A DNA stretch of 64,000 nt from Bacilli bacterium (GCA_041654855.1 JBAZCS010000001.1:985-64984); one strand, 5' to 3'; shown: positions 31,780 to 59,956, counted from the first letter of the stretch. The notes: generated by a model not told the origin, from the letters alone. Numbers and translations are program-made.

Positions 31780-32042
31780 CATTATCGTTTTCTCTATATT
31801 GAAAGAGCCATAAGTCGCTAAATATGCGATTTTTTCTATTGCTGATGACCCAAAAAAAGGGTGGAAACGCTTTCATGTTATTCATTTCTTGCAATGGCTC
31901 CTGTATATCAATATACTATTAATATATTTGGGGTAGTGTACGTCGAAAGAACTACAACCTCAATTAAGATAACTACTTTAGGCAATATGCGCTATATTGT
32001 TATAAGTAGTTGCGAACAATAATTCGAAAGGAGAAAAAAACT

Positions 32043-34532: not shown

Positions 34533-34627
34533 TAGTTAGTTAAAAATAAAAACTTATTGACCATCAAACGCAACGTGAGCAATCGCGTTGCGTTTGCATG
34601 CAGTTATAGAAAAGAAGGAATTATGTA

Positions 34628-35590
34628 ATGGGAAAATATATTTTAAAGCGTTTGGGGTTATTGGTATTTACCTTTTTTGTCATTATAACGATAAGTTTTT
34701 TTCTTATCCGGCTCCTCCCCCAAGAGATGCCACTCGAACCAAACTTACAAGCGTTAATCAAAGCTCGGTGGGAAGCATTAGGTTACAATAAGCCAATTAT
34801 CGTGCAATATGGTATTTATTTAAGGAACATCTTTACCAAATTTGATTTTGGGACTTCATGGAAAATCGCGCTGACGACGCCAGCCGTTGAAGTTATGGGT
34901 TCGAGAATTTTACCAACTGTTATTGTTAACTTATACTCACTTATTTTATCAATCCCGGTTGGGATTTCACTAGGTATTTATGCCGCCATTAAGAAGAACA
35001 AGTGGCAAGATCACCTTATCTCAACCGTCGTTATTATCTTTGTTAGTGTACCGTCTTACGTTTACGCTTTCTTAGTGCAATACTTCTTTTACTTTAAATT
35101 ACGGTGGGTGCCGACAAACGTCATGTATTCACTTGCCGATGCCGGGGGAAGTTATTTCACTGCTAAAATGTTCTCGAGTTTAATTCTTCCGGTGCTAGCG
35201 TTATCCTTTGGTGAAATTGCTGGACTTACCCGTTTTACAAGAGCGGAGTTATCGGAAACATTAACATCAGAATATATGTTACTTGCCCGTACAAAAGGCT
35301 TAACAAGAGGGCAAGCAACGACCCGCCACGCTTTAAAAAATGCCATGGTACCAATCTTCCCGATGCTTATTGCGTCATTTATTGGTATTTTAGGCGGCTC
35401 AATGATTATTGAACAAATCTTCTCGATTCCGGGGGTTGGTTCACTTTATCTAATGTCAATAAATCAGCTTGACTACGATATCTTTATGTTAGAAACGGTA
35501 TTTTATACTTTTATTGGTCTAACGGCGGGCATTGTGGTTGATATTTCATACGGATTTATTGATCCACGTATTAAGATGGGGAAAAAGTAA
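34628..35590 (+). CDS. oppB: Oligopeptide ABC transporter permease OppB.
   Basis: Six-TM BPD_transp_1 permease with the EAA-like loop (FTRAELSETL...ARTKGL). Confidence 0.85.
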   Translation: MGKYILKRLGLLVFTFFVIITISFFLIRLLPQEMPLEPNLQALIKARWEALGYNKPIIVQYGIYLRNIFTKFDFGTSWKIALTTPAVEVMGSRILPTVIVNLYSLILSIPVGISLGIYAAIKKNKWQDHLISTVVIIFVSVPSYVYAFLVQYFFYFKLRWVPTNVMYSLADAGGSYFTAKMFSSLILPVLALSFGEIAGLTRFTRAELSETLTSEYMLLARTKGLTRGQATTRHALKNAMVPIFPMLIASFIGILGGSMIIEQIFSIPGVGSLYLMSINQLDYDIFMLETVFYTFIGLTAGIVVDISYGFIDPRIKMGKK

Positions 35591-35591
35591 T

Positions 35592-37172
35592 ATGAATAGT
35601 AATAAATTAACAAATAAGAATGTAAAGGATGAACGTTTCACCTTTGCTCATGAAAATATTAAATTACATGACCACAAACTAAAAACAAAAGCTCGTGGTT
35701 ATTTTGCGGATGCCTTTTTCCGTTTCACCCGTAATAAAGCAAGCGTTACTGCTTCAATTATTATTGGTTTGATCTTACTATTCGCTCTTTTTGTGCCGAT
35801 TTTAACTCCGACTTCGGTGCAAACGATTATGGACCCATATTATGCTAAAAAAGGACCACGCAACACTATTTTATATAATATTGGTGTCAATGGCTCGCAA
35901 TCCAAAGTTTTAACAAATCGTGTCCTTTATTATGAATTAGGAAAAGGGGTGGCCGCTGAATTTAGTGAAGAAAATCCGGTGGTGACAATTGAAGAATCAC
36001 GAAAATCAAAATATCAACCAGTTGTTAAATATGGCAAGGCCACTGAAGCAAATTATGGCGACTCTTCAGCGCGTTATAAAGCAGCGGTTGACCAATATTT
36101 AGCAGTTGGCTTTAAATACATTTCGATTGAACAAAGTCGCTATCTTGAAATGCGGGCTTGGGAAGAAGAAAAAAATCTTAAACTCTTTTATCCTTTAATC
36201 GCAAGTAATGAATGGACCTTTGGTGAAGGTTCGCCTGACGCTGCTAACTATTGGTATAAAGCAACAAACCGCAATGACCCCGTAAAAATTGTCGGTGGTC
36301 AAGCAGTGCCGATTCCTTACGCTCCCGATATGGTATTTGAAGATAATTATATGCGTGATGCATCTAATAACTTTGTCTATTATGTCCACACTGGTGGCGG
36401 TTCTTTTGAAACTGCACAATATAAAGTTCGGGTGCTCTATTATAATTACTATCAATACATTTATGGACGGGAACCAAATTATATCTTTGGTACTGATTCG
36501 CAAGGTTATTCAATGATTTACCGCCTATCAACCGGGGTGCGACTCTCACTCATTATTGCGGTGCTCGTTAGTACGATTAACTTCGTAATTGGTGCACTTT
36601 ATGGGGCCGTAGAAGGATATTACGGCGGAGCCACGGACTTAGTCATGGAACGGATTAGCGATATTTTAGCCGGTGTTCCCTTTGTTGTTACCGTTACGCT
36701 CTTCCAGCTGCACTTTGCGGCGAAGGTGGGATCTTTTGTCGGGCTGCTCTTTGCTTATGTTGCAACAGGGTGGCTAGGAACGGCCGCCTCAGTTAGAACG
36801 CAGTTTTACCGGTATAAAAACCAAGAATATGTCCTGGCGGCGCGAACGCTTGGGGCTTCCGATAACCGTATTATGTGGAAACATATTTTCCCTAATACAT
36901 TAGGAACGCTTATTACATCATCCGTACTCGTTATTCCTGGTGTTATATTCTCCGAAAGTATGCTTTCTTACTTAGGTATTATTAAAGTTGGCGGTGCGAC
37001 TACGACGTCTTTAGGGACATTACTTTCTGACGCGTCAGCGATTTGGACATCTTACCCATCGCTTATGATTTTCCCCGCCCTTATTATTTCGCTATTAATG
37101 ATTTCGTTTAACCTCTTTGGTAACGGTCTACGCGATGCATTTAATCCACAATTGAGAGGAAGTGACAGTTAA
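35592..37172 (+). CDS. oppC: Oligopeptide ABC transporter permease OppC with a long extracytoplasmic N-terminal extension.
   Basis: ATG 35592 lies 2 nt after the oppB stop. C-terminal permease domain with the ARTLGAS EAA motif. About 526 aa. Confidence 0.85.
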   Translation: MNSNKLTNKNVKDERFTFAHENIKLHDHKLKTKARGYFADAFFRFTRNKASVTASIIIGLILLFALFVPILTPTSVQTIMDPYYAKKGPRNTILYNIGVNGSQSKVLTNRVLYYELGKGVAAEFSEENPVVTIEESRKSKYQPVVKYGKATEANYGDSSARYKAAVDQYLAVGFKYISIEQSRYLEMRAWEEEKNLKLFYPLIASNEWTFGEGSPDAANYWYKATNRNDPVKIVGGQAVPIPYAPDMVFEDNYMRDASNNFVYYVHTGGGSFETAQYKVRVLYYNYYQYIYGREPNYIFGTDSQGYSMIYRLSTGVRLSLIIAVLVSTINFVIGALYGAVEGYYGGATDLVMERISDILAGVPFVVTVTLFQLHFAAKVGSFVGLLFAYVATGWLGTAASVRTQFYRYKNQEYVLAARTLGASDNRIMWKHIFPNTLGTLITSSVLVIPGVIFSESMLSYLGIIKVGGATTTSLGTLLSDASAIWTSYPSLMIFPALIISLLMISFNLFGNGLRDAFNPQLRGSDS

Positions 37173-37174
37173 TT

Positions 37175-39394
37175 ATGGCAATTTTAGAAGTAAAACGTTT
37201 AAAGATTTCCTTCCGGACAAATAACGGTGCCGTTAAAGCTGTCCGCGACATCTCTTTTAAACTTGATAAAGGCAAAACCTTAGCAATTGTTGGTGAATCA
37301 GGTTCTGGTAAATCTGTCACCTCAAAAGCAATTCTAGGTATTTCCGCCGGAAACGTCATTATTGAAAGTGGCGAAATTATTTATGACGGTAAAGATTTAT
37401 TACGCTCGAGCGAACAAGACATGTATCATGTCCGGGGCGATAAAATTGGCATGATTTTCCAAGATCCTTTATCTTCTTTAAACCCGATTGTACGTATTGG
37501 TTACCAAATTACGGAAGCGATGCTTCTTAAAAACAAAGCAATTCGCAAAGAAGCGAAAAAAGACTTAAAAGCAATGCTTAACAATCTAAAGATTGCGATG
37601 TATGAAGCAAAAGCTGAAAGTTCACATGATAAAGCAGTTATTGACCAATTACTTGCTGATTTCAACGGCGCAAACTTAAAAGCGAGCATGCTTGAAAATT
37701 CCTTTAATGAATCTTTAGGTTTTGCCGGTGATATATCCTCGGCCATTAAAGACTTACTTATTAAGCTTAAACACCGTTATCTTGGTGATCCGTCTTCGCA
37801 AATTAAGATGATGCTTCGTAAACAAAAACGCATTAAAGATAGTTATTTTGTCTACGGAATTGAGCAAGAACTTAAAACAGTTGAAGAAACGTTAAGAGAA
37901 ATTCTTGCTACCTATAAGGGATGGAAAGCTTTAAAAACGGAAGAAAAACAAAGTCGTATTCCGGCAATTATTGAAAACTTTACGAAAGTTGAAACGATTG
38001 TCGATACGATTATCGACCGGGAAGAAATTGATTTTTTCCACTTAGGATTCTATGTTAATAAAAATGATAAAGCAGATTTAAGTTCCCTTCCGTTTAAGGA
38101 AATCAACACAAAAACAAAGCAATTTATCGATGAAACATTTATTCCAACCTTTACCACCTATAACCGCGCAGCGCTTGAGCATAGTGTTTATAAAACATTA
38201 GAATTTAAACGTGAAGTCGTCACCTTAGTCGAGGCCTTTAAAAAGGCACTTCAAGAAGAAGAACTTGACAAAAAAGTATTTAAAGCGCGTATAAAGGCAC
38301 TAAAACCAGTTGTTGAAGCATCGATTGATCCTTTAAAAACGCAAAAAGATAACGCGGCTTATATTTTAATTAATTCGCTCATGGGCGATTTAAATAAATA
38401 CTTCCAAGCAAAGAAAAGTAACGTTAAGGAAGAAAGACGTTTTGCCCGCCAAAGCGCACGTTACGCACGCCTTGAAAGTCGCGGCAAAAAACTTGATTAT
38501 CAAGTTATTCCAAAAAAACTTATTGCCTTAGAAGATATTATTGGTGATATGATTTCTTCGTGTGACGCTGTTATTGAAAAATATAACTCTTCCATCCGGA
38601 AGTTTGGCGATCACAACTACCAAAAATGGGAAAAAGTTGCGTTCTTGCTCGTTGATTATTTAAAAGAAAAAGCAAAAGATTCCGTCTTTAAATTATCAAA
38701 AACAGCAGCGAAAGAAAAAGCAATTAAGCTCATGGAAGAAGTTTCCATCCCTAACGCTCGGGAACGGTTTAGACAATACCCCTTTGAATTTTCCGGTGGT
38801 ATGAGGCAACGGATAGTTATTGCCATTGCCTTAAGCGCTGAACCGGAAATATTAATTTGTGACGAACCAACGACCGCGTTAGACGTTACAATTCAAGCGC
38901 AAATCTTAGGTCTTATTAACGACCTTAAAAAACGTCGTAACCTTTCCATTATCTTTATTACTCACGACTTAGGTGTCGTTGCTAATATGGCGGATGAAAT
39001 CGCGGTTATGTATGCGGGTAAGATTGTTGAATACGGATCAACTAATGATATATTCTACTCGCCAGCTCACCCGTATACTTGGGCTTTACTCTCTTCGATG
39101 CCCGACTTACAAACGAAAGAAAAACTGGAAACAATTCCGGGTACCCCTCCGAATATGATTTACCCACCGAAAGGTGATGCGTTTGCCGCGCGTAATAAAT
39201 ACGCTTTAAAAATCGACTTCGAGGAAGAACCACCAATGTTTAAAATCTCTGATACGCATTATGCGGCAACTTGGCTTTTAGACCCGCGGGCGCCCAAAGT
39301 TGATATGCCGACCGTTATCCAAGAACGGATTAAACGGATGAAAGCGGCGAAATACCCAAAGAAAGGACCGGACACAAATGAAAAATCAAAATAA
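37175..39394 (+). CDS. oppD: Oligopeptide ABC transporter ATP-binding protein OppD with a ~400-aa insertion in the NBD.
   Basis: Walker A GESGSGKS. Q-loop MIFQDP near aa 93. Signature FSGGMRQR only near aa 540. Walker B ILICDEPTTALD. C-terminal oligopeptide-ABC extension. Confidence 0.85.
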   Translation: MAILEVKRLKISFRTNNGAVKAVRDISFKLDKGKTLAIVGESGSGKSVTSKAILGISAGNVIIESGEIIYDGKDLLRSSEQDMYHVRGDKIGMIFQDPLSSLNPIVRIGYQITEAMLLKNKAIRKEAKKDLKAMLNNLKIAMYEAKAESSHDKAVIDQLLADFNGANLKASMLENSFNESLGFAGDISSAIKDLLIKLKHRYLGDPSSQIKMMLRKQKRIKDSYFVYGIEQELKTVEETLREILATYKGWKALKTEEKQSRIPAIIENFTKVETIVDTIIDREEIDFFHLGFYVNKNDKADLSSLPFKEINTKTKQFIDETFIPTFTTYNRAALEHSVYKTLEFKREVVTLVEAFKKALQEEELDKKVFKARIKALKPVVEASIDPLKTQKDNAAYILINSLMGDLNKYFQAKKSNVKEERRFARQSARYARLESRGKKLDYQVIPKKLIALEDIIGDMISSCDAVIEKYNSSIRKFGDHNYQKWEKVAFLLVDYLKEKAKDSVFKLSKTAAKEKAIKLMEEVSIPNARERFRQYPFEFSGGMRQRIVIAIALSAEPEILICDEPTTALDVTIQAQILGLINDLKKRRNLSIIFITHDLGVVANMADEIAVMYAGKIVEYGSTNDIFYSPAHPYTWALLSSMPDLQTKEKLETIPGTPPNMIYPPKGDAFAARNKYALKIDFEEEPPMFKISDTHYAATWLLDPRAPKVDMPTVIQERIKRMKAAKYPKKGPDTNEKSK

Positions 39395-40625
39395 AGAAGT
39401 ACTTTTATCGGTTCAAAATCTTTGCCAATACTTTAAAATGAATCGGCGCGACTTTAAGGCTGTTGACGGTATATCCTTTGATATTTATAAAGGTGAAGTC
39501 TTTGGCTTAGTCGGGGAATCAGGATGTGGTAAAACAACGACCGGTCGCTCGATTATTAAAATTTATGATATTACGTCAGGTGATATTTATTTTAAAGGCG
39601 TACGCATTGCCGCTGGTATTCGTTCCTATCAAGATGAAATAAAAAAGATTAGAAGTGAATTGCGTAAAAAAGCGCGACTCGCTTTAAAAGGGAGTGAAGA
39701 CGAAAAAGCGGCCTTTGCTGAATTTAAAAAAGAAAGTCAAGCACGGATTGATGAATTAAAACTTGAAATCGTTAAAGCGCGGCATGACCAAAAAAATTGC
39801 GATAAAGATTACGCTAAATTAGCAGTTAAAGAAACGCAAGAAAAATATGAAAAGCTTCTAGCTGAAGAACAAGATCTTGCGAAAAAAGAAGCACTTCAAA
39901 AAGACTATAAACGAGATCTTGCCATTGCCAAAAAGGCCCGTATTGTCACTTCCATTCAAATGATTTTCCAAGATCCAATTGGTTCTTTAAACCCAAGGAT
40001 GACTGTTAAAGAAATTATTCAAGAAGGACTTATTATTAAAGGTATTAAAGATAAAGCCTATTTAAAAGCCAAAGTTGAAGAAACACTTGAACTTGTTGGT
40101 TTAGTTAAAGAGCACGCGACTCGTTACCCCCACGAATTTAGTGGTGGCCAACGGCAAAGAATTGGTATTGCGCGAAGCATTATCATGGAACCAGAAATGA
40201 TCATTGCTGACGAGCCAGTAAGTGCGCTTGACGTTTCTATTCAAGCTCAAGTTATTAACTTACTTAACTCCCTTCGTAAAAAACTTGGTTTAACCATTAT
40301 GTTTGTCGCTCATGACTTATCGGTCGTAAAATATTTCTCCGACCGTATCGGTGTCATGTATAGCGGCAAACTCGTTGAATTAACAACAAGTGAAGAATTA
40401 TTCGCTAATCCTTTACACCCATATACAAAATCACTTTTAAGTGCAATTCCTCTTCCTGACCCAGAGTATGAAAAACATCGGGTAATCATTAACTATAATC
40501 CGTTCATTGATCACGATTACTCAACCGATTTACCATCAATGCGGGAAATCCGTCCTGGTCACTTTGTCTATTGTAACGACCAAGAAGAAGCGGAATATAA
40601 GAAGCAATTTAGTAAAAATGAATAA
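39378..40625 (+). CDS. oppF: Oligopeptide ABC transporter ATP-binding protein OppF with a ~100-aa coiled-coil insertion.
   Basis: Walker A GESGCGKTT, then a K/E/A-rich insertion before the Q-loop IQMIFQDP. Signature FSGGQRQR. Walker B MIIADEPVSALD. Confidence 0.85.
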   Translation: MKNQNKEVLLSVQNLCQYFKMNRRDFKAVDGISFDIYKGEVFGLVGESGCGKTTTGRSIIKIYDITSGDIYFKGVRIAAGIRSYQDEIKKIRSELRKKARLALKGSEDEKAAFAEFKKESQARIDELKLEIVKARHDQKNCDKDYAKLAVKETQEKYEKLLAEEQDLAKKEALQKDYKRDLAIAKKARIVTSIQMIFQDPIGSLNPRMTVKEIIQEGLIIKGIKDKAYLKAKVEETLELVGLVKEHATRYPHEFSGGQRQRIGIARSIIMEPEMIIADEPVSALDVSIQAQVINLLNSLRKKLGLTIMFVAHDLSVVKYFSDRIGVMYSGKLVELTTSEELFANPLHPYTKSLLSAIPLPDPEYEKHRVIINYNPFIDHDYSTDLPSMREIRPGHFVYCNDQEEAEYKKQFSKNE

Positions 40626-41749: not shown

Positions 41750-43480
41750 TTAACTTGTTTGTCGCGATGGGAAATTATTTAAGTTTGTCGCCCTTACCCC
41801 CACCGAATTTCCTAGGGTGTTATCAATATAAAAAGTTGAAGGATCAGTGAAGTAATAAACATAACCATTATTATTTGGATAGTCGAGCATATTGTAATAT
41901 GCGCTGCCAGCATACGTACCATCAAACTTTAAAATCGTCCGTTTGGGAACGTAGGTTTCATCCATTAAGTCTTCAAAATTACCGTTAGACATGCGGTAAG
42001 TGTAGTCGACGGCATCAATAAGACCGGCGTCTTCACCACCACTTTCATTAGTGCCGGAAAGCGTTAAATAGAAGAAGCTCGCACTCGTCGCCGCATATTG
42101 ACTTGAGGCGGCCACTAAAAATTCATAACCCGCACTAACCATTGTTTGTGGAATACGGAAGTCAAAATAAACACCAGTCCGGTTACCGACCGCAGCTTTA
42201 CTAATAGAAAAGCGCACTTCATTAAGATTCGTAATTGTTGTCCCATTACGTTTGAATTGATAAACAGAGATTGATTCATTATCGGCACCTTGGTTAAAAC
42301 GGAAGAAGGAAAGGCCACTCGTACCACCTTTTTTCGGCTTAAACCAAATTGAGTTACGGGGAGCGGTCATATTTGTGCCCGCTTCACTTGGGAGCGTTAC
42401 ACTATTACTCCATGTATTATTCGTGTTTCTTGTCGGCGGGTAAGTTGAAGCTAAAAGCACAGTCCTTGCAGTCCCGAGACTTCGCACTTGTTGATAACGC
42501 GCCCAAAACTCTTCATGGACTAAGGAAGCGTGATTAGCGTCAGTAATCGTTGTAATATTACTAGTCGTCGTTGTAATAACTTGGTTTTGGTTTTCCGCGA
42601 CTTCGACTAATGGATTATATTTAACAAAACTTGAGTTACTTGCATTAACAGAAGAAGTTTGGGTCGTTAAGCTACCCACGTAATAAGCACTGCCAATAAT
42701 GGAATTAGGGACGGCGACGGTGCTTGGGTAGTTGACGTTCGTAAATAAGTGACCGGGATAGTTTGGGTCGACAAGTAAATTACCGGCTACTCCTTGGTCA
42801 GGATTATCGGACCATGTAATATAAGGACCTAGCTTACCAATTAATGAATAATCGCTCGTTACTCGAATGGCACTTGGGCCTAAGGAAATCTTTGCATTTT
42901 TAACCCCAATTCCCTTTAATGTTCCGTTAGCGTATCCCGCAACAAGCCCGACATAGCTATTGTTAACTTTGTTTGAAACTTCAAGGTTTTCAAGATAAAA
43001 GTTTTGCGCCAAGCCGATAATTGGTGGTTCATCTTCAGTTGAACCTAAATTACCAAAAAAGCCGATTGAATTACCAACATCTACAATTTCAAAGTGGCTT
43101 GGTTTTTCTTTCCAATCAAGGGGATCACTCGATACCCATAAGTTTTTAAGCGTATAGCCATTACCGTCAAAACTACCAAGAAATGGGGCTTCGTCAGTGC
43201 CAATTGGGGGAATAGCACCGCTATGAATGTCTAGAAAGCCCGTTAATGAGCCTTTCATATCAATATCATTGCCAAGTTCAAAATATGTTTTTTCTGGACA
43301 GGCGCCGCTATTTTGCAGCCAGGAGAAGTTATATAGATGTTTTGGGGTGCGAATAATGTAGGGATCAGCTTCTGTTCCGGTTCCGCTTGCGTAATAGTTA
43401 CTAATTGAACTACCGGTCATTTTTGTGTTAAATTGCAAAACAGTCGTAAACCATGCCATTGTTGTCGTTACTAATGACAA
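41750..43480 (-). CDS. Large secreted/surface protein with a TasA/TapA-like SipW-cognate N-terminal motif (TTMAWFTT). The 5' end is out of frame with its coupled ATG.
   Basis: 576-aa ORF rich in N/T/S/G. MAWFTT parallels TWAAFND of TasA and SAAFHD of TapA. The ORF-track start is a TTG with no RBS. An AGGAG-coupled ATG at 43536-43534 is in another frame (see findings). Confidence 0.55.
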   Translation of the reverse strand: MSLVTTTMAWFTTVLQFNTKMTGSSISNYYASGTGTEADPYIIRTPKHLYNFSWLQNSGACPEKTYFELGNDIDMKGSLTGFLDIHSGAIPPIGTDEAPFLGSFDGNGYTLKNLWVSSDPLDWKEKPSHFEIVDVGNSIGFFGNLGSTEDEPPIIGLAQNFYLENLEVSNKVNNSYVGLVAGYANGTLKGIGVKNAKISLGPSAIRVTSDYSLIGKLGPYITWSDNPDQGVAGNLLVDPNYPGHLFTNVNYPSTVAVPNSIIGSAYYVGSLTTQTSSVNASNSSFVKYNPLVEVAENQNQVITTTTSNITTITDANHASLVHEEFWARYQQVRSLGTARTVLLASTYPPTRNTNNTWSNSVTLPSEAGTNMTAPRNSIWFKPKKGGTSGLSFFRFNQGADNESISVYQFKRNGTTITNLNEVRFSISKAAVGNRTGVYFDFRIPQTMVSAGYEFLVAASSQYAATSASFFYLTLSGTNESGGEDAGLIDAVDYTYRMSNGNFEDLMDETYVPKRTILKFDGTYAGSAYYNMLDYPNNNGYVYYFTDPSTFYIDNTLGNSVGVRATNLNNFPSRQTS

Positions 43481-43537: not shown

Positions 43538-44257
43538 TTACACTCCTACGTAATACGTAATGTGATCAGCGTACATTACTTCCTTAATTGAATCAGCGCG
43601 AATATCATTTATATAATTCATGACGGGAACGTTATATTCAATAACAAACCACAATTCATTATCACTGTTTGATAAAGTAGTAAGCGGGATTCGTGTTTGT
43701 TTTACAGGATTAGGATTTAAACTAACAAACGAAGTAGTGTTCGCTTTGTTATAAGTTAAAGTGGCGGTTGACCAACCATTTGGTAACGATACAGGGTTAG
43801 CGCTTGTTAATTGAAAAACATTAGATGTAACATTTTCATCATACTCGCCGGCGCCGCTATGTCCGGTATGAAAAGCACCAGCGTTTGTTTTTGCATATAA
43901 GTAAACAGTACTCGTTTCGGTATATGTGAAGGTAATATGCACAACTAAGGCGCGCCGATATTGCGTATATTCAATATCTTGGGGATCAAAACGCGGCATA
44001 CGGACCGCCGGACTATTTTCAAAAGTATAACTATTTGTTGTTGACCCTTCATTAACGACCGTAACGGGGTAAACATTATAGGAATGAATTTGAAAGCCAG
44101 GAGCGGCAATTTCAATTTGGCGGGCAATAATTTGTGCGCGATTATTATTCGTAAACCACGCAAAAGTGGTAATTGTAAAAGAAGAGATCAAACCGATGAG
44201 AATAACGAAATTCAAAATAATAAGCGAAATTTTACGATTAAGAATTTTGTTTTTCAA
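43538..44257 (-). CDS. Secreted protein with a SipW-cognate-like signal peptide (TTFAWFTNNN), TasA/camelysin-like size.
   Basis: 239 aa. TTG start with an AGGAAAGGAAG RBS. N-region KNKILNRK, h-region ISLIILNFVILIGLISSF, then the T-x-A-W-F-T motif. Confidence 0.55.
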   Translation of the reverse strand: MKNKILNRKISLIILNFVILIGLISSFTITTFAWFTNNNRAQIIARQIEIAAPGFQIHSYNVYPVTVVNEGSTTNSYTFENSPAVRMPRFDPQDIEYTQYRRALVVHITFTYTETSTVYLYAKTNAGAFHTGHSGAGEYDENVTSNVFQLTSANPVSLPNGWSTATLTYNKANTTSFVSLNPNPVKQTRIPLTTLSNSDNELWFVIEYNVPVMNYINDIRADSIKEVMYADHITYYVGV

Positions 44258-44477
44258 TGTATTTACTTCCTTTCCTAGAGTGACACTTAGCGGCTAAAAA
44301 AAGAGCCACCACCATTATTTTGGCAGCTGGCTATCTTATCTTTTATAAGACCCTATAGTTTTGCGTCGCTAGATTACTCTAGGTTTGCCTTTACCTTATT
44401 TTTATAAATAATAAATAATTTTTGTCAATATTGAATGCTTTTTTAATGAATTTAGTTAGAAATCAGCGAAAAAGATA

Positions 44478-51613: not shown

Positions 51614-52600
51614 ATGAAACTCTTAAAAACGATGTTATTCATGCTTTTTTTAACGCAAATTATTCCGCCCCAGGAATACGCTGCCCCAATCAGTGGCATT
51701 TTACCTTATACGCAGTATCCCAAAGACGTTACTAAGCCGGTAATGGTCTCTTTTGTCTATCATACAACAACTGAGATGACGCTTGAATATGAGTTTTACG
51801 TAAAAAACCCAGAGGGTAAGGTTGTTTTTAATCGGCCGAAACGGCAAATATATTTAGGAAATAATACCGAACTACCGATTTATTATTATTCTTATTCTGG
51901 AGCGACGGGGGTGGGCCGTAATTCTTTAGTGTTTTTACATCGTCCGCTTGGAGAAACAACGTATAAAATCCATACCATATATTTTTATGGCTTTCGCCCC
52001 GGTGTCGAAGTTGATTTAAATGATAAGGTTGATCGTGACACTAAGTTTAGTGAAGAAACAGTTTACGAATATTTTGGCTACACTGCCGGGACCGCCCGTT
52101 TTATTAAAACATCAATGTATAGTAGTGGGCTTATTGAAGAATTAGAGTTGAATCACGATTTATTTCTTAATTTAGATAATCTTTTTCTAAGAACTAACGC
52201 GAAGTATGAAAACGGTGATCAATTGTTTGATGACGCCCGTCTTTATATTAGTGATAAAACATTATACCCGTATCATCTGCATAGTTATGATGGGGAAGCG
52301 GTGCTCCATATTAAACTTATTAAAAATGATTATATTATTTCTTTACATCCCAAAACAATTGTTTATTACGACCCAATTACTCATTTAACGTGTATGGCTT
52401 ATAAAAAAGGGTTTTTACAATCAACAAAATATTTATTTCCAAAAGGACGGAAAGATGATGTTGAAGCAGCGAGTTTTCGTTTGGAAATAAAAGGGCTCGG
52501 TTTTAATAAGTTTAACGCAACCTTTCGCTTTAACGTTAAAATCGCTGATGTCTTTGTTGGCGAAGATGGGTATCACGAAGTAAGGATTGAACGTAATTAA
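51614..52600 (+). CDS. Hypothetical secreted protein (signal peptide), first gene of the Tad-like cluster.
   Basis: MKLLKTMLFMLFLTQIIPPQEYAAP signal-like N-terminus. Y/F-rich, beta-rich composition. 328 aa. Confidence 0.5.
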   Translation: MKLLKTMLFMLFLTQIIPPQEYAAPISGILPYTQYPKDVTKPVMVSFVYHTTTEMTLEYEFYVKNPEGKVVFNRPKRQIYLGNNTELPIYYYSYSGATGVGRNSLVFLHRPLGETTYKIHTIYFYGFRPGVEVDLNDKVDRDTKFSEETVYEYFGYTAGTARFIKTSMYSSGLIEELELNHDLFLNLDNLFLRTNAKYENGDQLFDDARLYISDKTLYPYHLHSYDGEAVLHIKLIKNDYIISLHPKTIVYYDPITHLTCMAYKKGFLQSTKYLFPKGRKDDVEAASFRLEIKGLGFNKFNATFRFNVKIADVFVGEDGYHEVRIERN

Positions 52601-52601
52601 T

Positions 52602-52973
52602 ATGTGGTGGAAATTAGCGTTTGTTTTTCTTTTTCTTTTTAGCGCTCAGTTTACAACTAGTGTACGTTTTAGTCATGTTAATGAAGTGTTTAATAGTATT
52701 ACGCATGATTATGTTTATCACGCCATCACCTTTAGTGAACAAAGCGAAGAAGCATATTTTAATGAAACAACGGTAAACACGATTATTGATGAACATTTCA
52801 CTAATAACTTAAAAGTCAAAAATTACGAGCATAAGATTACTTTTTACCGTAATGGACGGATTAAAAAAATTGGTGAAAGGAGTAATGAGTTTCATATAAA
52901 CCTAAAGGCTAATCTCGGCTTTAATGTGTTTTATGAGAAAACATTTAAATACTATGTCACACGCAATCGATAA
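52602..52973 (+). CDS. Small hypothetical protein with an N-terminal signal/TM segment.
   Basis: MWWKLAFVFLFLFSAQF hydrophobic N-terminus. 123 aa. Overlaps the start of the downstream ATPase gene. Confidence 0.4.
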   Translation: MWWKLAFVFLFLFSAQFTTSVRFSHVNEVFNSITHDYVYHAITFSEQSEEAYFNETTVNTIIDEHFTNNLKVKNYEHKITFYRNGRIKKIGERSNEFHINLKANLGFNVFYEKTFKYYVTRNR

Positions 52974-53892
52974 TGTTATTAGTATTATTGAAACTAGTTT
53001 CCTAAAAGATTTATTAAGTGATGAATCAATTACGGATATTAGTTATAACGGGCAAAATCTTTACTTTTTCTCAAGTAAAAGCGGGCGCGCCTTTTATAAA
53101 AGCATTGATAATAGCCAAGTTTTAACGTTTCTGCGCAATATCGCCAATTACGCGAATGTCCGTTTTTCTTATAGTGATACTTTCTTAGATATCTCTGTTG
53201 GTAAATATCGCTTAAGCGCAATGCATTATGCGCTTAGTCGCTTTGGTTATAAAGAAAGCTTAAGCTTTGCCTTACGCATTAATCATAACTTTTTAGCGCG
53301 TAATCCGCATTATCTTGGCGAAAAGTTAGGCGCCATTTTACAAGATATTATGAGTAAAAAAAGATCGATTATTATAAGTGGAACGACGGGTGTTGGAAAA
53401 ACAACATTACAAAAGTATTTATTAATGTTATTACCACCGAATACGCGTGTATTAGTCATTGATAATGTATTAGAGTTAGGTGAAGTTCACACTTTAAATG
53501 AAACGTTAGATATAACACTTTGGCAAACGAAAGATAATAAAGAAGAAGCGATTCGTGAATATGTGCAAAGGGCGCTACGCTTTCATCCTGATTATTTAAT
53601 TATTGCCGAAAGTCGCGGTCACGAGATGAAAGAAATATTACAAGGAGCGATAAGTGGTCATCCTAACATTGTTACCTTACACGCTGATAGTGCCGAAATC
53701 GCTTATGACCGTGTGTTGTATTTAAGTGGCTCGCCCAATAAAGATGCCTTATACCATGCTTATCCTTATGTTATTCATCTTGCGAAGAAGGAAGACAATA
53801 AAGGACAAGTAAAAAGATATATTGAAAGAATAACGGCCTATGACGTTAAAACGAAAAAGATTAAAGTAATCTACTGTGAGGATAAAGAATGA
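52954..53892 (+). CDS. Secretion/pilus-assembly ATPase of the VirB11/CpaF(TadA)/archaeal FlaI clade, minimal length (312 aa).
   Basis: Walker A ISGTTGVGKTT. Asp-box-like PDYLIIAESRG. His-box TLHADSA. No large N-terminal domain. Confidence 0.7.
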   Translation: MSHAIDNVISIIETSFLKDLLSDESITDISYNGQNLYFFSSKSGRAFYKSIDNSQVLTFLRNIANYANVRFSYSDTFLDISVGKYRLSAMHYALSRFGYKESLSFALRINHNFLARNPHYLGEKLGAILQDIMSKKRSIIISGTTGVGKTTLQKYLLMLLPPNTRVLVIDNVLELGEVHTLNETLDITLWQTKDNKEEAIREYVQRALRFHPDYLIIAESRGHEMKEILQGAISGHPNIVTLHADSAEIAYDRVLYLSGSPNKDALYHAYPYVIHLAKKEDNKGQVKRYIERITAYDVKTKKIKVIYCEDKE

Positions 53893-54581
53893 CCCTAGTT
53901 ATCATCTTCCCCCTCTTACTTGTTATATTAATTGGCACATATTCTTATCTTGTTCTTGGTAGTGTTTTCTATTTAATGATAAATAGTGCAATCACCTTAC
54001 TATTTGCGATATATTTAGCGATTCGTCTATATTATTATCAAAATCTTATTGCCCGTAAACGCTTTATGTTTTCGTTCATTGAACTTTTTATTTTAAATTT
54101 TGATGTGCAAAAAAGTATTGAAGCAACGATGGCCATTATTTTCCCCTTATTTAGCGCAACCGAGCAAAAAACATTGAATCGCTTGCAAAAAGGCGATGGA
54201 TTGAGTCTTGTTGAGCAGTTAAAGTTATATTTTAATGATTATTATTATGAATCATTTTTTGATATGTTAATGGTGGTCGTTGATCGTGGGGGCTCTTTTA
54301 TTAAGGTGAGTGAAGTGCTTTTATACACCATATCGGATAGTGAAGCGCAGCTTATTAAATTAAACCGCATTGACAATACTTATTTAATTAAGTTTGTCTT
54401 TAACTGGCTTTTTATTATGGCCGTTGCTGTTATCTTTCGTTTTGCCTTAAACGATACGATAAACCTTAATAATTTAGACTTAACGTATTTAGTAGGTAAT
54501 GAAATATTTATGGGTACCTTTTTACTAAGTTTAACGTTACTTATTGAAAATAGATTACGGAGGAGTAAAAATGTCACTTAA
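53889..54581 (+). CDS. Polytopic membrane protein, TadB/TadC-like (single T2SS-F-like domain).
   Basis: Directly follows the ATPase with an ATGA overlap. N- and C-terminal TM helices flank a soluble helical region. 230 aa. Confidence 0.45.
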   Translation: MTLVIIFPLLLVILIGTYSYLVLGSVFYLMINSAITLLFAIYLAIRLYYYQNLIARKRFMFSFIELFILNFDVQKSIEATMAIIFPLFSATEQKTLNRLQKGDGLSLVEQLKLYFNDYYYESFFDMLMVVVDRGGSFIKVSEVLLYTISDSEAQLIKLNRIDNTYLIKFVFNWLFIMAVAVIFRFALNDTINLNNLDLTYLVGNEIFMGTFLLSLTLLIENRLRRSKNVT

Positions 54582-55170
54582 GAAATTATTAAAAGCGTTA
54601 GCACTACTTTGTATTATAAGTGGATTAGCGCTTATTTTTTGGCTCCGAAATTATTTAATATATGGAATGTTAATTGTTGTGGGCATAGGCTTATATTATT
54701 TTTCGACAAAAAAAGATGAAACAAAAGATAACTTAAATATCGCTAATTTTATTAATGTTTTTACGCATTTTCGGGTCGCTCTTGATAGTGATGCGAATGT
54801 CTTTAATGCTTTAAGCGCTAGTTTAGAGTTAACAAGCGGACGGATGCATGAAGAATTAGAGCGGCTTATTAGCGCCATTAATAAAGATCATAGTGTCACC
54901 CCCTTTATTACTTTTGCAAAAAAATATAATCACCGCTTTGTTACCCACATCATGATTAATATTTATATGCTTATTAATCACGGTCTTGATCCGAAAAGAC
55001 TTTGGCAATTTAACTATTTATTTGAAACATTACTGAAAGAATATAACGACGCTGAAATAAGCAAGCATCAAAATAGTTATGACCGCTTTGATTTAAGCCT
55101 CTTTCTCGGTAGTGGCATTATGATGTTTACGATTATGGGCAGCATTCTTTCGCTTTTAGGAGGAGCGTAA
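54571..55170 (+). CDS. Polytopic membrane protein, TadC-like (single T2SS-F-like domain).
   Basis: FTHFRVALDSDANVFNALSASLELTSG resembles the GspF-family conserved helix. TM helices at both ends. 199 aa. Confidence 0.45.
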   Translation: MSLKKLLKALALLCIISGLALIFWLRNYLIYGMLIVVGIGLYYFSTKKDETKDNLNIANFINVFTHFRVALDSDANVFNALSASLELTSGRMHEELERLISAINKDHSVTPFITFAKKYNHRFVTHIMINIYMLINHGLDPKRLWQFNYLFETLLKEYNDAEISKHQNSYDRFDLSLFLGSGIMMFTIMGSILSLLGGA

Positions 55171-55508
55171 TGAGTAATATATTTGGGTTAATGTATTCTT
55201 TTATCTTAATATTACCGACTATTCTTTTCGGTGTTGATGTAACGCGCATCAGCACTATTCGCACATACTTAGAAGCTCGAGCAACGGTTGTAAGTTACCA
55301 AATAAGTAAAGAAGGGGGCATCAAACAAAGCTTAATCAATAGCTTAGAAGAAGAAGGGATTACGATTGAATGCAGCGGTGAATGCACTTATATAAGTATG
55401 GGGGAAACAATAAGTTTTCGTTTAGTCCGTACGTATACACCGATGATTTTACAAAAGGAAGAAATGGAAGTAAAAGTTACAAGAGTTGTAATCGTCGGTT
55501 ATTTATAA
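55170..55508 (+). CDS. Small N-terminally anchored protein, TadE/pseudopilin-like.
   Basis: 112 aa. N-terminal TM helix followed by a beta-rich domain. Coupled start (ATG overlaps the upstream TAA). Confidence 0.35.
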   Translation: MSNIFGLMYSFILILPTILFGVDVTRISTIRTYLEARATVVSYQISKEGGIKQSLINSLEEEGITIECSGECTYISMGETISFRLVRTYTPMILQKEEMEVKVTRVVIVGYL

Positions 55509-55523
55509 AAGAAAGGAGGAGCT

Positions 55524-55673
55524 ATGTCAGAATTAAAAGGACAACTATTTGGCATTATCTTAGTTATCTTAATGTCAGTCGCCATTGGTGGCGCGATTAA
55601 AGCCGTCGTCAACAATAATGTGCAATCCATTAATAGCCAAGAATCAGCCGCTAATAGTGCGATGGGTTTTTAA
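55524..55673 (+). CDS. 49-aa pilin-like peptide (Flp/archaeal-type class III signal candidate). Not in the supplied ORF track.
   Basis: Strong GAAAGGAGGAG RBS 3 nt before the ATG. MSELKG-QLFGIILVILMSVAIGGAIKAVVNNNVQSINSQESAANSAMGF. Charged leader, KGQ, hydrophobic helix, then an N/S/Q-rich tail, as in Flp pilins. Confidence 0.4.
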   Translation: MSELKGQLFGIILVILMSVAIGGAIKAVVNNNVQSINSQESAANSAMGF

Positions 55674-56053: not shown

Positions 56054-56128
56054 GCCTAGTTAGCTCAGCGGCAGAGCAATCGGCTGTTAACCGATCGGTC
56101 GTAGGTTCAAATCCTACACTAGGCGCCA
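56054..56128 (+). tRNA. tRNA-Asn (anticodon GTT), CCA encoded.
   Basis: Acceptor GCCTAGT/ACTAGGC. D-arm GCTC/GAGC. Anticodon stem ATCGG/CCGAT with loop CTGTTAA. T-arm GTAGG-TTCAAAT-CCTAC. Discriminator G then CCA. Confidence 0.85.
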
Positions 56129-56129
56129 T

Positions 56130-56206
56130 GGCCCGTTGGAGAAGCGGTTTAACTCACATGCCTTTCACGCATGCATTCATGGGTTCGAATCCCGTACGGG
56201 TCACCA
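56130..56206 (+). tRNA. tRNA-Glu (anticodon TTC), CCA encoded.
   Basis: Acceptor GGCCCGT/ACGGGTC (one G-U pair). Anticodon stem CATGC/GCATG with loop CTTTCAC. T-arm ATGGG-TTCGAAT-CCCGT. Closely resembles Bacillus tRNA-Glu. Confidence 0.8.
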
Positions 56207-57911: not shown

Positions 57912-58802
57912 ATGTATATCACAGTTAAAGAAGCTGCCGTAAAATGGCGTATATCCGAGCGTAGAGTAAGGATCTTATGCGCACAAGGGAAAATACTAGG
58001 TGCTCACCAGGAAGGAAGAGCTTGGAAAATCCCATATGATGCAATAAAACCTGCTGATGGTCGATACAAAAAGACCAAATCACTTCTTCCTATAATAGAA
58101 GAAAAAGTGGCTTCTTTAAAACTAAGAAGACCTTTAACAGAAAGTGAATTAGAACGATTAAATGAACAATTTTTAACCGACTTTACATATAACTCGAATG
58201 GTATTGAAGGAAATACAATGTCCTTACGGGAAACGGACATGGTTCTTCGGGGCCTTACAATTGCTCATAAGTCATTAAAAGAACACTTGGAAGTAATTGG
58301 GCATAAGGAAGCATTTGATTATATAAAAGAACTTGCAAAAAAAGATGCTGTTCTTTCTGAAAAGATAATTAAGGATATTCACTATTTAGTTTTAGCGGAC
58401 AAAAAAGAAGATCGCGGAATATATCGAAGAATTCCCGTTCTTATTGCTGGAACAATGCACGAGCCGACTAAACCTTATTTAATAGATGGCAAAATAAAAG
58501 AACTATTAACGAAATATAATAAGAGTAATGAAGACACTATTTCTAAAATAGCGCGTTTTCATCTTGAATTTGAATCGATTCACCCATTTATTGATGGAAA
58601 TGGAAGAACTGGTAGATTAATAATGAATTTAGAACTCATGAAAAAAGGCTATCCACCAATAGGAATTAATATCACTGACAAATTAAGATACTACAAGGCC
58701 TTTGATGAATTTCATTTAAAAGGTGATATTTCTGTAATGACCGACATCATCGCAACATATTTAAATCAAAGACTTGATTTTTATTTATCTATTTTGGATT
58801 AG
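57912..58802 (+). CDS. Fic-family protein (AMPylase/adenylyltransferase) with an N-terminal excisionase-type HTH.
   Basis: Fic motif HPFIDGNGRTGR. Upstream inhibitory-helix-like SNGIEGN (S-x-x-x-E-G). N-terminal MYITVKEAAVKWRISERRVRIL HTH. Confidence 0.85.
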   Translation: MYITVKEAAVKWRISERRVRILCAQGKILGAHQEGRAWKIPYDAIKPADGRYKKTKSLLPIIEEKVASLKLRRPLTESELERLNEQFLTDFTYNSNGIEGNTMSLRETDMVLRGLTIAHKSLKEHLEVIGHKEAFDYIKELAKKDAVLSEKIIKDIHYLVLADKKEDRGIYRRIPVLIAGTMHEPTKPYLIDGKIKELLTKYNKSNEDTISKIARFHLEFESIHPFIDGNGRTGRLIMNLELMKKGYPPIGINITDKLRYYKAFDEFHLKGDISVMTDIIATYLNQRLDFYLSILD

Positions 58803-58978: not shown

Positions 58979-59956
58979 ATGGAGCGAGTAAAGGCGTTAC
59001 AGAAAAAATATAAAATCGATCTTTTATATGACGTTTTCTTAAGGGAGAGTGATTCACTTTTCTTTATCATTGAAGGCGTTAAAGATACGACAACGAAACC
59101 TTTAATACCCCTTTTTGGTGACTGCTCACTTTTTAACATTAGTTGCGATGCGACGACTTTAGAAGATATTATTAGTAAAATCGACCAAAAAAGTGAAATA
59201 TGTGATATTTTAGGCTTTAAAGAATATGTTACGGAATTAAAACGCGAATTAGACGCTGATCAAACAAAAACGGTGTTATATTTTCCGCTTGTTATTGATG
59301 GCGTTAAACATTATTTAGAATTGAAAGCCTTTAAATTCTTTGAACAAGGAGTAACGATTATTTTATTTAACCCCGTTGACCTTAAAAAAGTCAATTTAGA
59401 AATGCTTTATTTTGAATCATATAAAGATAGCTTAACTGGTTTATTTAATTACAACACCCTATTATTACATTTAAGTAAAGCATATGGTGATCATTTCTTT
59501 GGCTTTATTGATTTAGACCATTTTAAATTAATTAACGATACGTATGGTCATAATCGGGGCGATGAAGTTTTAGCACTGGTCGGTAAAAAACTTATAGAAA
59601 TCGCTGATGAACACGTTATTATGTATCGTAAAAGTGGCGATGAATTTATTTTCATGACTATTGATTTAGATAAAGAAAAAACGATGGCACTAGTTAAAAA
59701 GATTCAAGAAGTTATCCGCTCCATCCATTTACCAGCGTTAAAGACTGATTGTTCGATTGGGGTTGTCGAATATAAAGATAATAATGGCCTTTATGATGTT
59801 TATGACGCCATCGCCCTTGCCGATATTGCCATGTATATGTCAAAGAAAAATGGTCGCGGCCAAGTAACACATATTGATGAAGACGAGGTACGAAGTATTG
59901 TCGCTTTTGGTCCGCTAGAAGAAACTTCAGATTCACTCAAGTCTAAAGGTTGCTAA
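58979..59956 (+). CDS. GGDEF-domain protein (diguanylate cyclase family) with SGDEF active-site variant and an uncharacterised N-terminal domain.
   Basis: LTGLFNYNTLL...FIDLDHFKLINDTYGHNRGDEVL...YRKSGDEF. No RxxD I-site upstream of the SGDEF motif. Confidence 0.8.
   Translation: MERVKALQKKYKIDLLYDVFLRESDSLFFIIEGVKDTTTKPLIPLFGDCSLFNISCDATTLEDIISKIDQKSEICDILGFKEYVTELKRELDADQTKTVLYFPLVIDGVKHYLELKAFKFFEQGVTIILFNPVDLKKVNLEMLYFESYKDSLTGLFNYNTLLLHLSKAYGDHFFGFIDLDHFKLINDTYGHNRGDEVLALVGKKLIEIADEHVIMYRKSGDEFIFMTIDLDKEKTMALVKKIQEVIRSIHLPALKTDCSIGVVEYKDNNGLYDVYDAIALADIAMYMSKKNGRGQVTHIDEDEVRSIVAFGPLEETSDSLKSKGC

Follow-up and report, generated by a model that had tools for sequence, protein, structure and literature searches.

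In this study, we propose that seven consecutive genes (g1 to g7) within a 64,000-nucleotide stretch of DNA from a Bacilli bacterium (GCA_041654855.1 JBAZCS010000001.1:985-64984; the whole stretch is called the window hereafter) probably encode a minimal type IV filament (TFF) machine, of the kind known from Tad (tight adherence) systems and archaeal EppA-dependent (Epd) pili, in a single-membrane cell. The building blocks are a secretion ATPase (g3), two short membrane proteins that would together make up a split platform (g4 and g5) and two small proteins with the layout of pilins (g6 and g7), preceded by a presumably secreted protein (g1) and a small protein with a hydrophobic N-terminus (g2). 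We regard the locus as a new, minimal and vertically inherited variant of the Tad/Epd branch, of which the filament and the processing of the pilins are predictions.

All seven genes are present as open reading frames (ORFs) on the plus strand at 51614-55673, in the co-directional, tightly packed arrangement given by the initial annotation. Neighbouring genes overlap (junctions from g1 to g7, in order: -14, -20, -4, -11, -1 and +15 nt), g7 being the sole gene set apart. GGAGG-type Shine-Dalgarno sequences precede g5, g6 and g7, and the ribosome-binding site of g7 is a strong AGGAGG located 5 nt upstream of its ATG. Together, the seven genes make up a translationally coupled unit that is conserved. 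TGA terminates four of the 46 long ORFs in the window, including g3, and is thus used as a stop codon, which makes the genetic code standard, as had been assumed. The G+C content of the window ranges from 32 to 40% and the locus does not stand out as a compositional island.

Our profile survey comprises 96 loci, of which 80 are from metagenomes and the others are the window itself, genome contigs and look-ups by protein, with flanks fetched up to about 8 kb on each side of the ATPase gene where the contig reaches. The order gmk (opposite strand), g1 to g7, acpP is complete in 38 of the 96 loci; the other 58 agree with it but are truncated by contig ends or lack a weakly detected gene, and a rearranged gene order was found in none of them. 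The fetched loci share one layout, consisting of two CNNM/CBS genes, an SDR or HflX gene, the guanylate kinase gene on the opposite strand, the seven genes and the acyl carrier protein gene, and the flanks in the window are the same. Even the two most upstream genes are retained in profile searches, with g1 found upstream of g2 in 78 related loci and g2 in 90. Since the order recurs across 96 loci, the genes are real and not chance ORFs, and because order and flanks are identical across the clade, inheritance is vertical. The locus is a chromosomal, vertically inherited operon of one clade, and neither a mobile element nor a chance run of ORFs.

The window ATPase is 100% identical to a protein of a metagenome-assembled genome (MAG) at NCBI labelled 'Bacilli bacterium', and its relatives (36-95% identity) originate solely from MAGs and metagenomes labelled Bacilli, Tenericutes (ADurb.Bin087) or Erysipelotrichaceae. 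Taxonomically, the clade is labelled inconsistently (Staphylococcaceae, Bacillales, Tenericutes, Erysipelotrichaceae): the MAG records L001 (CAYTKX010000028.1) and L002, with ATPase copies that are 95% and 76% identical to that of the window, are titled 'uncultured Staphylococcaceae' and 'uncultured Bacillales', respectively.

By its motifs and its Pfam T2SSE score (67.3 bits; cut-off 24.9), g3 is identified as a true T2SSE-superfamily secretion ATPase. The Walker A motif GTTGVGKTT, the Asp box/Walker B motif DYLIIAESRG and the His box TLHADSA quoted earlier are all in the sequence. Among the NCBIfam models, VirB11 (TIGR02788, 92.4 bits with a cut-off of 250) and the TadA family (TIGR03819, 91.9 bits with a cut-off of 373) rank highest, the latter aligning to g3 almost end to end. 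They are followed by TrbB, FlaI, BasE and ComGA, and PilT and GspE score much lower. Two relatives of 340-350 amino acids give the same ranking; across the three proteins the VirB11 and TadA models reach 92-122 bits vs 53-70 bits for ComGA (cut-off 300). The best sequence matches in the PDB are a GspE-like ATPase of A. fulgidus, CpaF and VirB11 (E about 1e-12). Ranking and PDB matches together support the placement in the VirB11/CpaF-TadA/FlaI clade made in the initial annotation. The accompanying statement that the ATPase is devoid of an N-terminal domain proved imprecise: residues 136-393 of CpaF align to residues 3-254 of g3, an alignment that indicates that g3 keeps the core N-terminal domain as well as the ATPase domain and is without only the roughly 130-residue N-terminal extension of CpaF. 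We consider g3 a putative orphan subfamily in the VirB11/TadA/FlaI part of the superfamily, where the scores do not split TadA-like from VirB11-like members. A recent Pfam entry, PF27713 ('UCP018868'), has a precomputed match on many g3 homologues and may already delimit this subfamily; no publication on the entry was found.

The genes for the two membrane proteins follow directly after g3 with overlapping stop and start codons. Among the top five fold matches of the predicted g5 model, four are the N-terminal domain of PilC (score 10.3; 100 of 103 residues, 2.4 A), SpoIIIAB (9.0), EpsF/GspF (8.6) and TcpE (8.0). PilC, EpsF/GspF and TcpE are known GspF-type cytoplasmic domains. The model thereby assigns the GspF/PilC platform fold to g5. 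A profile search in 1.84 billion representative proteins returned 215 g5 relatives at E <= 1e-3, almost all of about 220 amino acids, and 30 of the 120 relatives scanned singly have weak Pfam T2SSF matches (best E = 1.3e-5). Comparison of the g5 and g4 profiles with PDB sequences gave nothing meaningful, and hhalign against the single TadB and TadC of a Lachnospiraceae locus pointed to the right region without significance (E 0.0015-0.25).

For g4 the argument runs via its relationship to g5. The two families align in hhalign over 144 columns with a probability of 94.9% (E = 4.5e-8), which identifies g4 as a distant sequence paralogue of g5. In addition, one sublineage carries g4-g5 fusions in the order g4 then g5 (P0175, P0176 and P0184; 387-404 amino acids, with a mutual identity of only 35%), whose N-terminal half is g4-like (99.4%, E = 3e-21) and whose C-terminal half is g5-like. 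In locus L014 such a fusion fills the slot of g4 and g5 in an otherwise identical locus, and we propose that it restores a PilC/GspF-like two-domain platform inside the locus. The GspF-like nature of g4 is deduced from this paralogy and fusion, its own fold being unconfirmed. The expectation that each membrane protein corresponds to a single GspF domain consequently stands for g5, by model fold and by the weak T2SSF matches of its relatives, and for g4 by paralogy and fusion but not by its own fold; likewise, structure prediction returned PilC, EpsF/GspF and TcpE for g5, whereas the g4 model was too poor. We interpret g4 and g5 as the two halves of a split PilC/GspF-type platform. They are indeed unusually short, with 200-230 amino acids vs about 310-340 in Tad. 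Two adjacent platform genes with a single T2SSF domain each, beside an ATPase and very short pilins, are a hallmark of Tad (TadB/TadC) and archaeal Epd systems (PMC6668835). The split platform adjoining the ATPase agrees with the Tad-type gene order that was initially recognized.

The last gene of the operon encodes the candidate major pilin. The g7 sequence starts with MSELKG, continues as QLFGIILVILMSVAIGGAI... and ends in a polar tail. A homologue directly follows g6 in all 63 loci that reach that far, giving 54 distinct peptides of 45-70 amino acids. Their N-terminus reads M-S-E-[ILV]-K-G-[Q/T/S] and leads into a hydrophobic segment of some 22 residues and a variable polar tail. M1, E3, K5 and G6 are invariant, and S2 (50/54), Q7 (46/54, otherwise T or S) and F18 (52/54) nearly so. 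Counted from the putative cleavage site, position +5 is I, V, M or L and position +6 is I, L or V. In size and shape g7 equals the Flp pilins of the canonical Lachnospiraceae tad locus (...ESG|QGMVEY..., then a hydrophobic helix and a short S/T/N-rich tail), which also have Gln at +1. A basic residue, Gly and Gln at +1 without Glu5 are typical of archaeal class III signals. Gram-positive bacteria have been described with Flp-like pilins that lack Tyr6 (PMC3244431). Architecture and conservation argue for g7 as a putative pilin, presumably processed after Gly6.

The candidate minor pilin g6 has a similar layout. Most of its 44 distinct homologues begin with a six-residue stretch ending in G (or S/A). 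Behind it lie about 17 hydrophobic residues, then Asp23, which is invariant, and a small C-terminal domain. This shared layout of six-residue leader and helix fits a common processing enzyme for g6 and g7, and the Gly at the end of the leaders (Ser or Ala in some g6 proteins) suggests cleavage by an A24 prepilin peptidase encoded elsewhere.

Less can be said about the first two genes. g1 is the fastest-evolving gene of the locus, with 13-27% identity among relatives, and may be a substrate or a protein located at the surface or the tip. For g2, an accessory or minor-pilin-like role is a guess. In Erysipelotrichaceae-type loci an extra gene for a cytoplasmic protein of 105-123 amino acids lies before g1 and overlaps its start (Table 1). 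The C-terminal part of its product carries a conserved INNEFF(Y/F)Q...W/Y-rich sequence, no family matched it, and the gene is not in the window; it may encode a regulator.

These building blocks can be combined into a working model. A hexamer of g3 would dock on a heterodimeric membrane platform of g4 and g5, and ATP-driven movement of the platform would lift g7 from the bilayer and stack the subunits into a thin helical fibre or a pseudopilus. Each g7 subunit would contribute a single hydrophobic helix and a short polar tail, as in Flp, while g6 and perhaps g2 would serve as low-abundance priming or minor pilins and the variable, secreted g1 would be displayed on the fibre or released by it. 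The leaders of g7 and g6 would be cleaved by an A24 prepilin peptidase encoded elsewhere, and a secretin is not needed because there is no outer membrane. We infer the identity of g7 as a pilin, its cleavage after Gly6, the formation of a filament and any function of it. As to this function, adhesion by a surface filament appears to us an evenly balanced prospect, DNA uptake a conceivable but clearly less probable one, and a pseudopilus exporting g1 an unlikely one, in a rough division only.

Several observations weigh against the assignment of the locus to a Tad/Epd-type machine. g3 remains far under the curated cut-off of every named NCBIfam family, and VirB11 scores as well as TadA. When the seven window proteins were scanned with Pfam and NCBIfam, the ATPase alone matched, so that the profile check proposed initially was positive for T2SSE but negative for T2SSF, TadE and Flp_Fap: g4 and g5 have no match in either database, no family was found for g1 and g2, and g7 has no Pfam match and was negative in hhalign against bona fide Flp. 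The predicted model of g4 is weak in its cytoplasmic region and both g4 fold searches were uninformative. The Flp motif G/XXXXEY (Glu5/Tyr6) is absent from all 54 g7 peptides, none of which has an acidic residue at positions 8-28. The description of g7 as a pilin-like product of 49 amino acids thus keeps its Flp-like size and shape and a conserved N-terminus, but not detectable homology to Flp or its motif. The similarity of g6 to TadE or TadF is not significant (one of seven family members matched TadF, at E = 0.086) and g6 was negative in hhalign against a TadE-like protein; it is N-anchored as stated before, yet no sequence test supports calling it TadE-like. Finally, all carriers are uncultured MAGs.

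The absence of some expected parts also counts against it. TadZ, CpaB/RcpC and TadG are not in the locus, and no polytopic ORF with GxGD, the A24 peptidase motif, was found in the 64-kb window. Phmmer searches of the window with TadV, TadZ, RcpC, TadB, TadC, TadE, Flp and TadG of Lachnospiraceae returned the ATPase only, and TadV, TadZ and RcpC queries had no match in the flanks of the 96 loci, although very divergent homologues could escape these single-sequence searches. In the window and around the related loci, up to about 8 kb from the ATPase gene and as far as the contigs reach, no prepilin peptidase, TadZ, CpaB or secretin came to light. The initial annotation had already reported that the window lacks TadZ, a secretin and a prepilin peptidase. 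Prepilin peptidases are, however, often encoded away from their system and shared between systems (PMC6668835), and their absence at the locus alone is no argument against a pilus.

A bolder version of the proposal would take these absences at face value. The locus would then represent a hitherto unrecognized, deep and vertically inherited Tad/Epd branch native to Mollicute-related Bacilli, building its fibre from an archaeal-style (K-G|Q) mini-pilin without Glu5 (E5) and with the ATPase and split platform alone, i.e., without dedicated prepilin peptidase, TadZ or CpaB. We regard this version as doubtful. In the absence of a dedicated peptidase, a recruited housekeeping peptidase or unprocessed subunits are possible.

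Three other explanations have to be weighed against a Tad/Epd-type filament. The same machine might be a competence (DNA-uptake) pseudopilus that binds and pulls in DNA and replaces ComG or works beside it, which we hold to be unlikely. Vertical inheritance at a fixed housekeeping position brings the locus nearer to com operons than to the often-transferred tad islands, and the short Lys-Gly leader of g7 presumably resembles ComGC-type leaders. Tad-like pili drive transformation in Micrococcus luteus (PMC4322843). Against this stand the ComGA scores of the ATPase and its relatives, far below those for VirB11/TadA, a g7 without the F+1/E+5 signature of ComGC and a locus without comE, comF or dprA in it or its immediate flanks, and a comG operon of its own is reported to be retained in related Erysipelotrichales, separate from such a locus (PMC12786226).

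Even less probable, in our opinion, is a non-filament export device, in which the ATPase and the GspF-like proteins would form a translocation or 'feeding-tube' complex like SpoIIIAA/SpoIIIAB that exports or inserts g1 and g2, with g6 and g7 as small membrane subunits. The layout of a transmembrane helix, a cytoplasmic helical domain and a further transmembrane helix is the same, SpoIIIAB is the second structural match of g5, g3 has what we take to be about the size of SpoIIIAA, and both the missing peptidase and the g7 peptides without Glu5 would be in line with such a device. Yet, SpoIIIAA and SpoIIIAB gave no NCBIfam match, SpoIIIAE-, AG- and AH-like genes are lacking, and PilC, EpsF and TcpE jointly outnumber and outscore SpoIIIAB among the fold matches of g5, while the invariant leader-like N-terminus and the Flp-like size of g7 suit a pilin better. 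That g3 serves a type IV secretion system, conjugative or other, as its VirB11-type ATPase module, with VirB11 as nominal top NCBIfam match and one MAG annotation naming the protein VirB11, is very improbable and was rejected on the basis of synteny and partners: the scores lie far under the VirB11 cut-off, the seven proteins and flanking called genes contain no VirB4, VirD4, VirB6/8 or relaxase domains, and, opposite to a conjugative context with membrane proteins devoid of a T2SSF-like fold, the partners show the GspF fold that is lacking in type IV secretion systems, in a locus that is syntenic in the core chromosome across the clade.

Other features in the window are listed in Table 1 together with the genes of the locus. 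Two ORFs are immediately preceded by a c-di-GMP-I riboswitch (Rfam RF01051, 63.5 bits), and their products both have a hydrophobic start followed by a shared T-[TM]-[FM]-A-W-F-T motif. No Pfam or NCBIfam family was found for either of them, and a relation to TasA/SipW-type proteins was discarded as NCBIfam gave no match; they may be surface proteins controlled by c-di-GMP. A diguanylate cyclase gene with a GGDEF domain (Pfam, 91.7 bits) is present 3.3 kb downstream of the locus, and the related locus L014 has a GGDEF gene shortly after acpP. Two tRNA genes immediately follow acpP, and a Fic/DOC-family gene with an HTH domain is situated 1.7 kb beyond them; a Fic gene also occurs downstream of acpP in locus L010. 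Further upstream, an Opp-type peptide ABC transporter has unusually large components, comprising an 840-aa substrate-binding protein, a 546-aa OppC-like permease and a 739-aa ATPase with its ABC domain split by a long insert.

Table 1. Positions of the genes of the locus and of further features, counted from the first letter of the window or, where a related locus is named, within that locus.
Feature	Position	Strand	Product	Remarks
g1	51614-52600	+	328 aa	short N-terminal signal-like hydrophobic segment
g2	52587-52973	+	128 aa	N-terminal hydrophobic segment without leader; between g1 and the ATPase gene; alternative start ATG at 52602
g3	52954-53892	+	312 aa	T2SSE-superfamily ATPase, proposed motor
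g4	53889-54581	+	230 aa	membrane protein, four hydrophobic spans around a helical cytoplasmic region
g5	54571-55170	+	199 aa	membrane protein, predicted GspF/PilC-type cytoplasmic helical domain; upstream TTG at 54544 would give 208 aa (homologues 199-202 aa)
g6	55170-55508	+	112 aa	one N-terminal span; candidate minor pilin
g7	55524-55673	+	49 aa	candidate major pilin
g4-g5 fusion, L014	8001-9215			fills the slot of g4 and g5
Extra gene before g1, L006	5171-5506			
Extra gene before g1, L011	5281-5598			
Extra gene before g1, L012	5215-5580			
Extra gene before g1, L016	4526-4897			
Opp-type peptide ABC transporter	32010-40625	+		
Second ORF downstream of riboswitch	41750-43480	-	576 aa	
First ORF downstream of riboswitch	43538-44257	-	239 aa	
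c-di-GMP-I riboswitch	44319-44399	-		
Two tRNA genes	56054-56203	+		
Fic/DOC-family gene	57912-58802	+		
GGDEF diguanylate cyclase gene	58979-59956	+		
GGDEF gene, L014	11286-12293			

Classical Mollicutes served as the type-IV-pilus-negative control set in a survey of type IV pili in Gram-positives (PMC3244431). Here, a clade of Mollicute-related Bacilli keeps a type IV filament-like locus at one fixed site down to about 36% ATPase identity. Five of the seven proteins belong to no Pfam or NCBIfam family. Because the platform proteins fall below T2SSF detection, standard profile searches of the TXSScan/MacSyFinder type that are based on Pfam would probably miss the system. If a filament is built, it indicates how few parts a single-membrane cell needs for this purpose. 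If the bolder version of a minimal branch without Glu5 holds true, no smaller self-contained gene set for a type IV filament would be known, and the locus would newly inform on the rise of Tad from archaeal pili in single-membrane cells; a mini-pilin without Glu5 in such a cell bears on the debate over the archaeal origin of Tad (PMC6668835). The locus also offers a conserved candidate for a surface structure by which abundant uncultured dwellers of anaerobic digesters, sludge and other metagenomes may adhere or take up DNA.

A description of this locus was not found in the literature, and it is best understood by comparison with known systems. With Tad/Flp it shares a CpaF/VirB11-type ATPase followed by two separate platform genes with a single GspF-like domain each, a tiny pilin-like product (about 45-70 amino acids) whose putative cleavage site reads G|Q, like that of Flp in Firmicutes, small N-anchored proteins in the operon and the lack of a retraction ATPase. 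It differs by the absence of TadV, TadZ, CpaB/RcpC, TadG and a secretin, by a g7 without the Glu5/Tyr6 motif of Flp, by platform proteins of 200-230 amino acids (about 310-340 in Tad) that escape the Pfam T2SSF model, by an ATPase without the N-terminal extension of CpaF and by its two unique upstream genes g1 and g2. In addition, it is inherited vertically at a fixed site, whereas Tad is a mobile 'colonization island'. The tad locus of Bulleidia (PMC12786226) was considered and rejected as the same system, being a different locus of 13 genes that is reported to be horizontally acquired and includes tadV.

The likeness to the Epd pili of Methanococcus concerns both the platform and the pilin. 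Epd and other archaeal pilins carry a signal resembling class III, composed of a basic residue, Gly and Gln at +1, and do not require Glu5, and g7 is alike. A platform split over two genes with a single T2SSF domain each and short pilins are shared as well (PMC6668835). The present locus differs by its bacterial host, by the lack of an EppA/PibD-type peptidase and a KaiC/FlaH-like second ATPase in the locus, by a g7 without detectable similarity to archaeal pilin families and by an ATPase that scores lower with FlaI than with VirB11/TadA.

The ComG system of Bacilli is similarly a vertically inherited filament machine of a single-membrane cell, with about seven genes, no secretin and a peptidase encoded elsewhere. 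Here, however, the ATPase does not resemble ComGA, the platform is divided over two genes, the pilin has half the size and is without F+1/E+5, the gene order is different and two extra genes lie upstream of the ATPase gene.

The Tad-like cluster of TANB77 (PMC11680825), with the Bulleidia locus the nearest precedent, is likewise divergent and confined to one uncultured clade of Firmicutes with reduced genomes; structure or context is needed to recognise its platform and its pilin-like proteins, and its platform halves can be fused. That cluster belongs to a gut order of Clostridia, keeps CpaB, TadZ and CpaE, and encodes a 640-aa ATPase and several pilin-like proteins of 140-620 amino acids, whereas the much smaller locus described here occurs in Bacilli and lacks all of those accessory genes. 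What sets it apart is the Mollicute-related host group, its extreme reduction and divergence and its fixed position in the core genome, while we still consider it a member of the widespread TFF superfamily.

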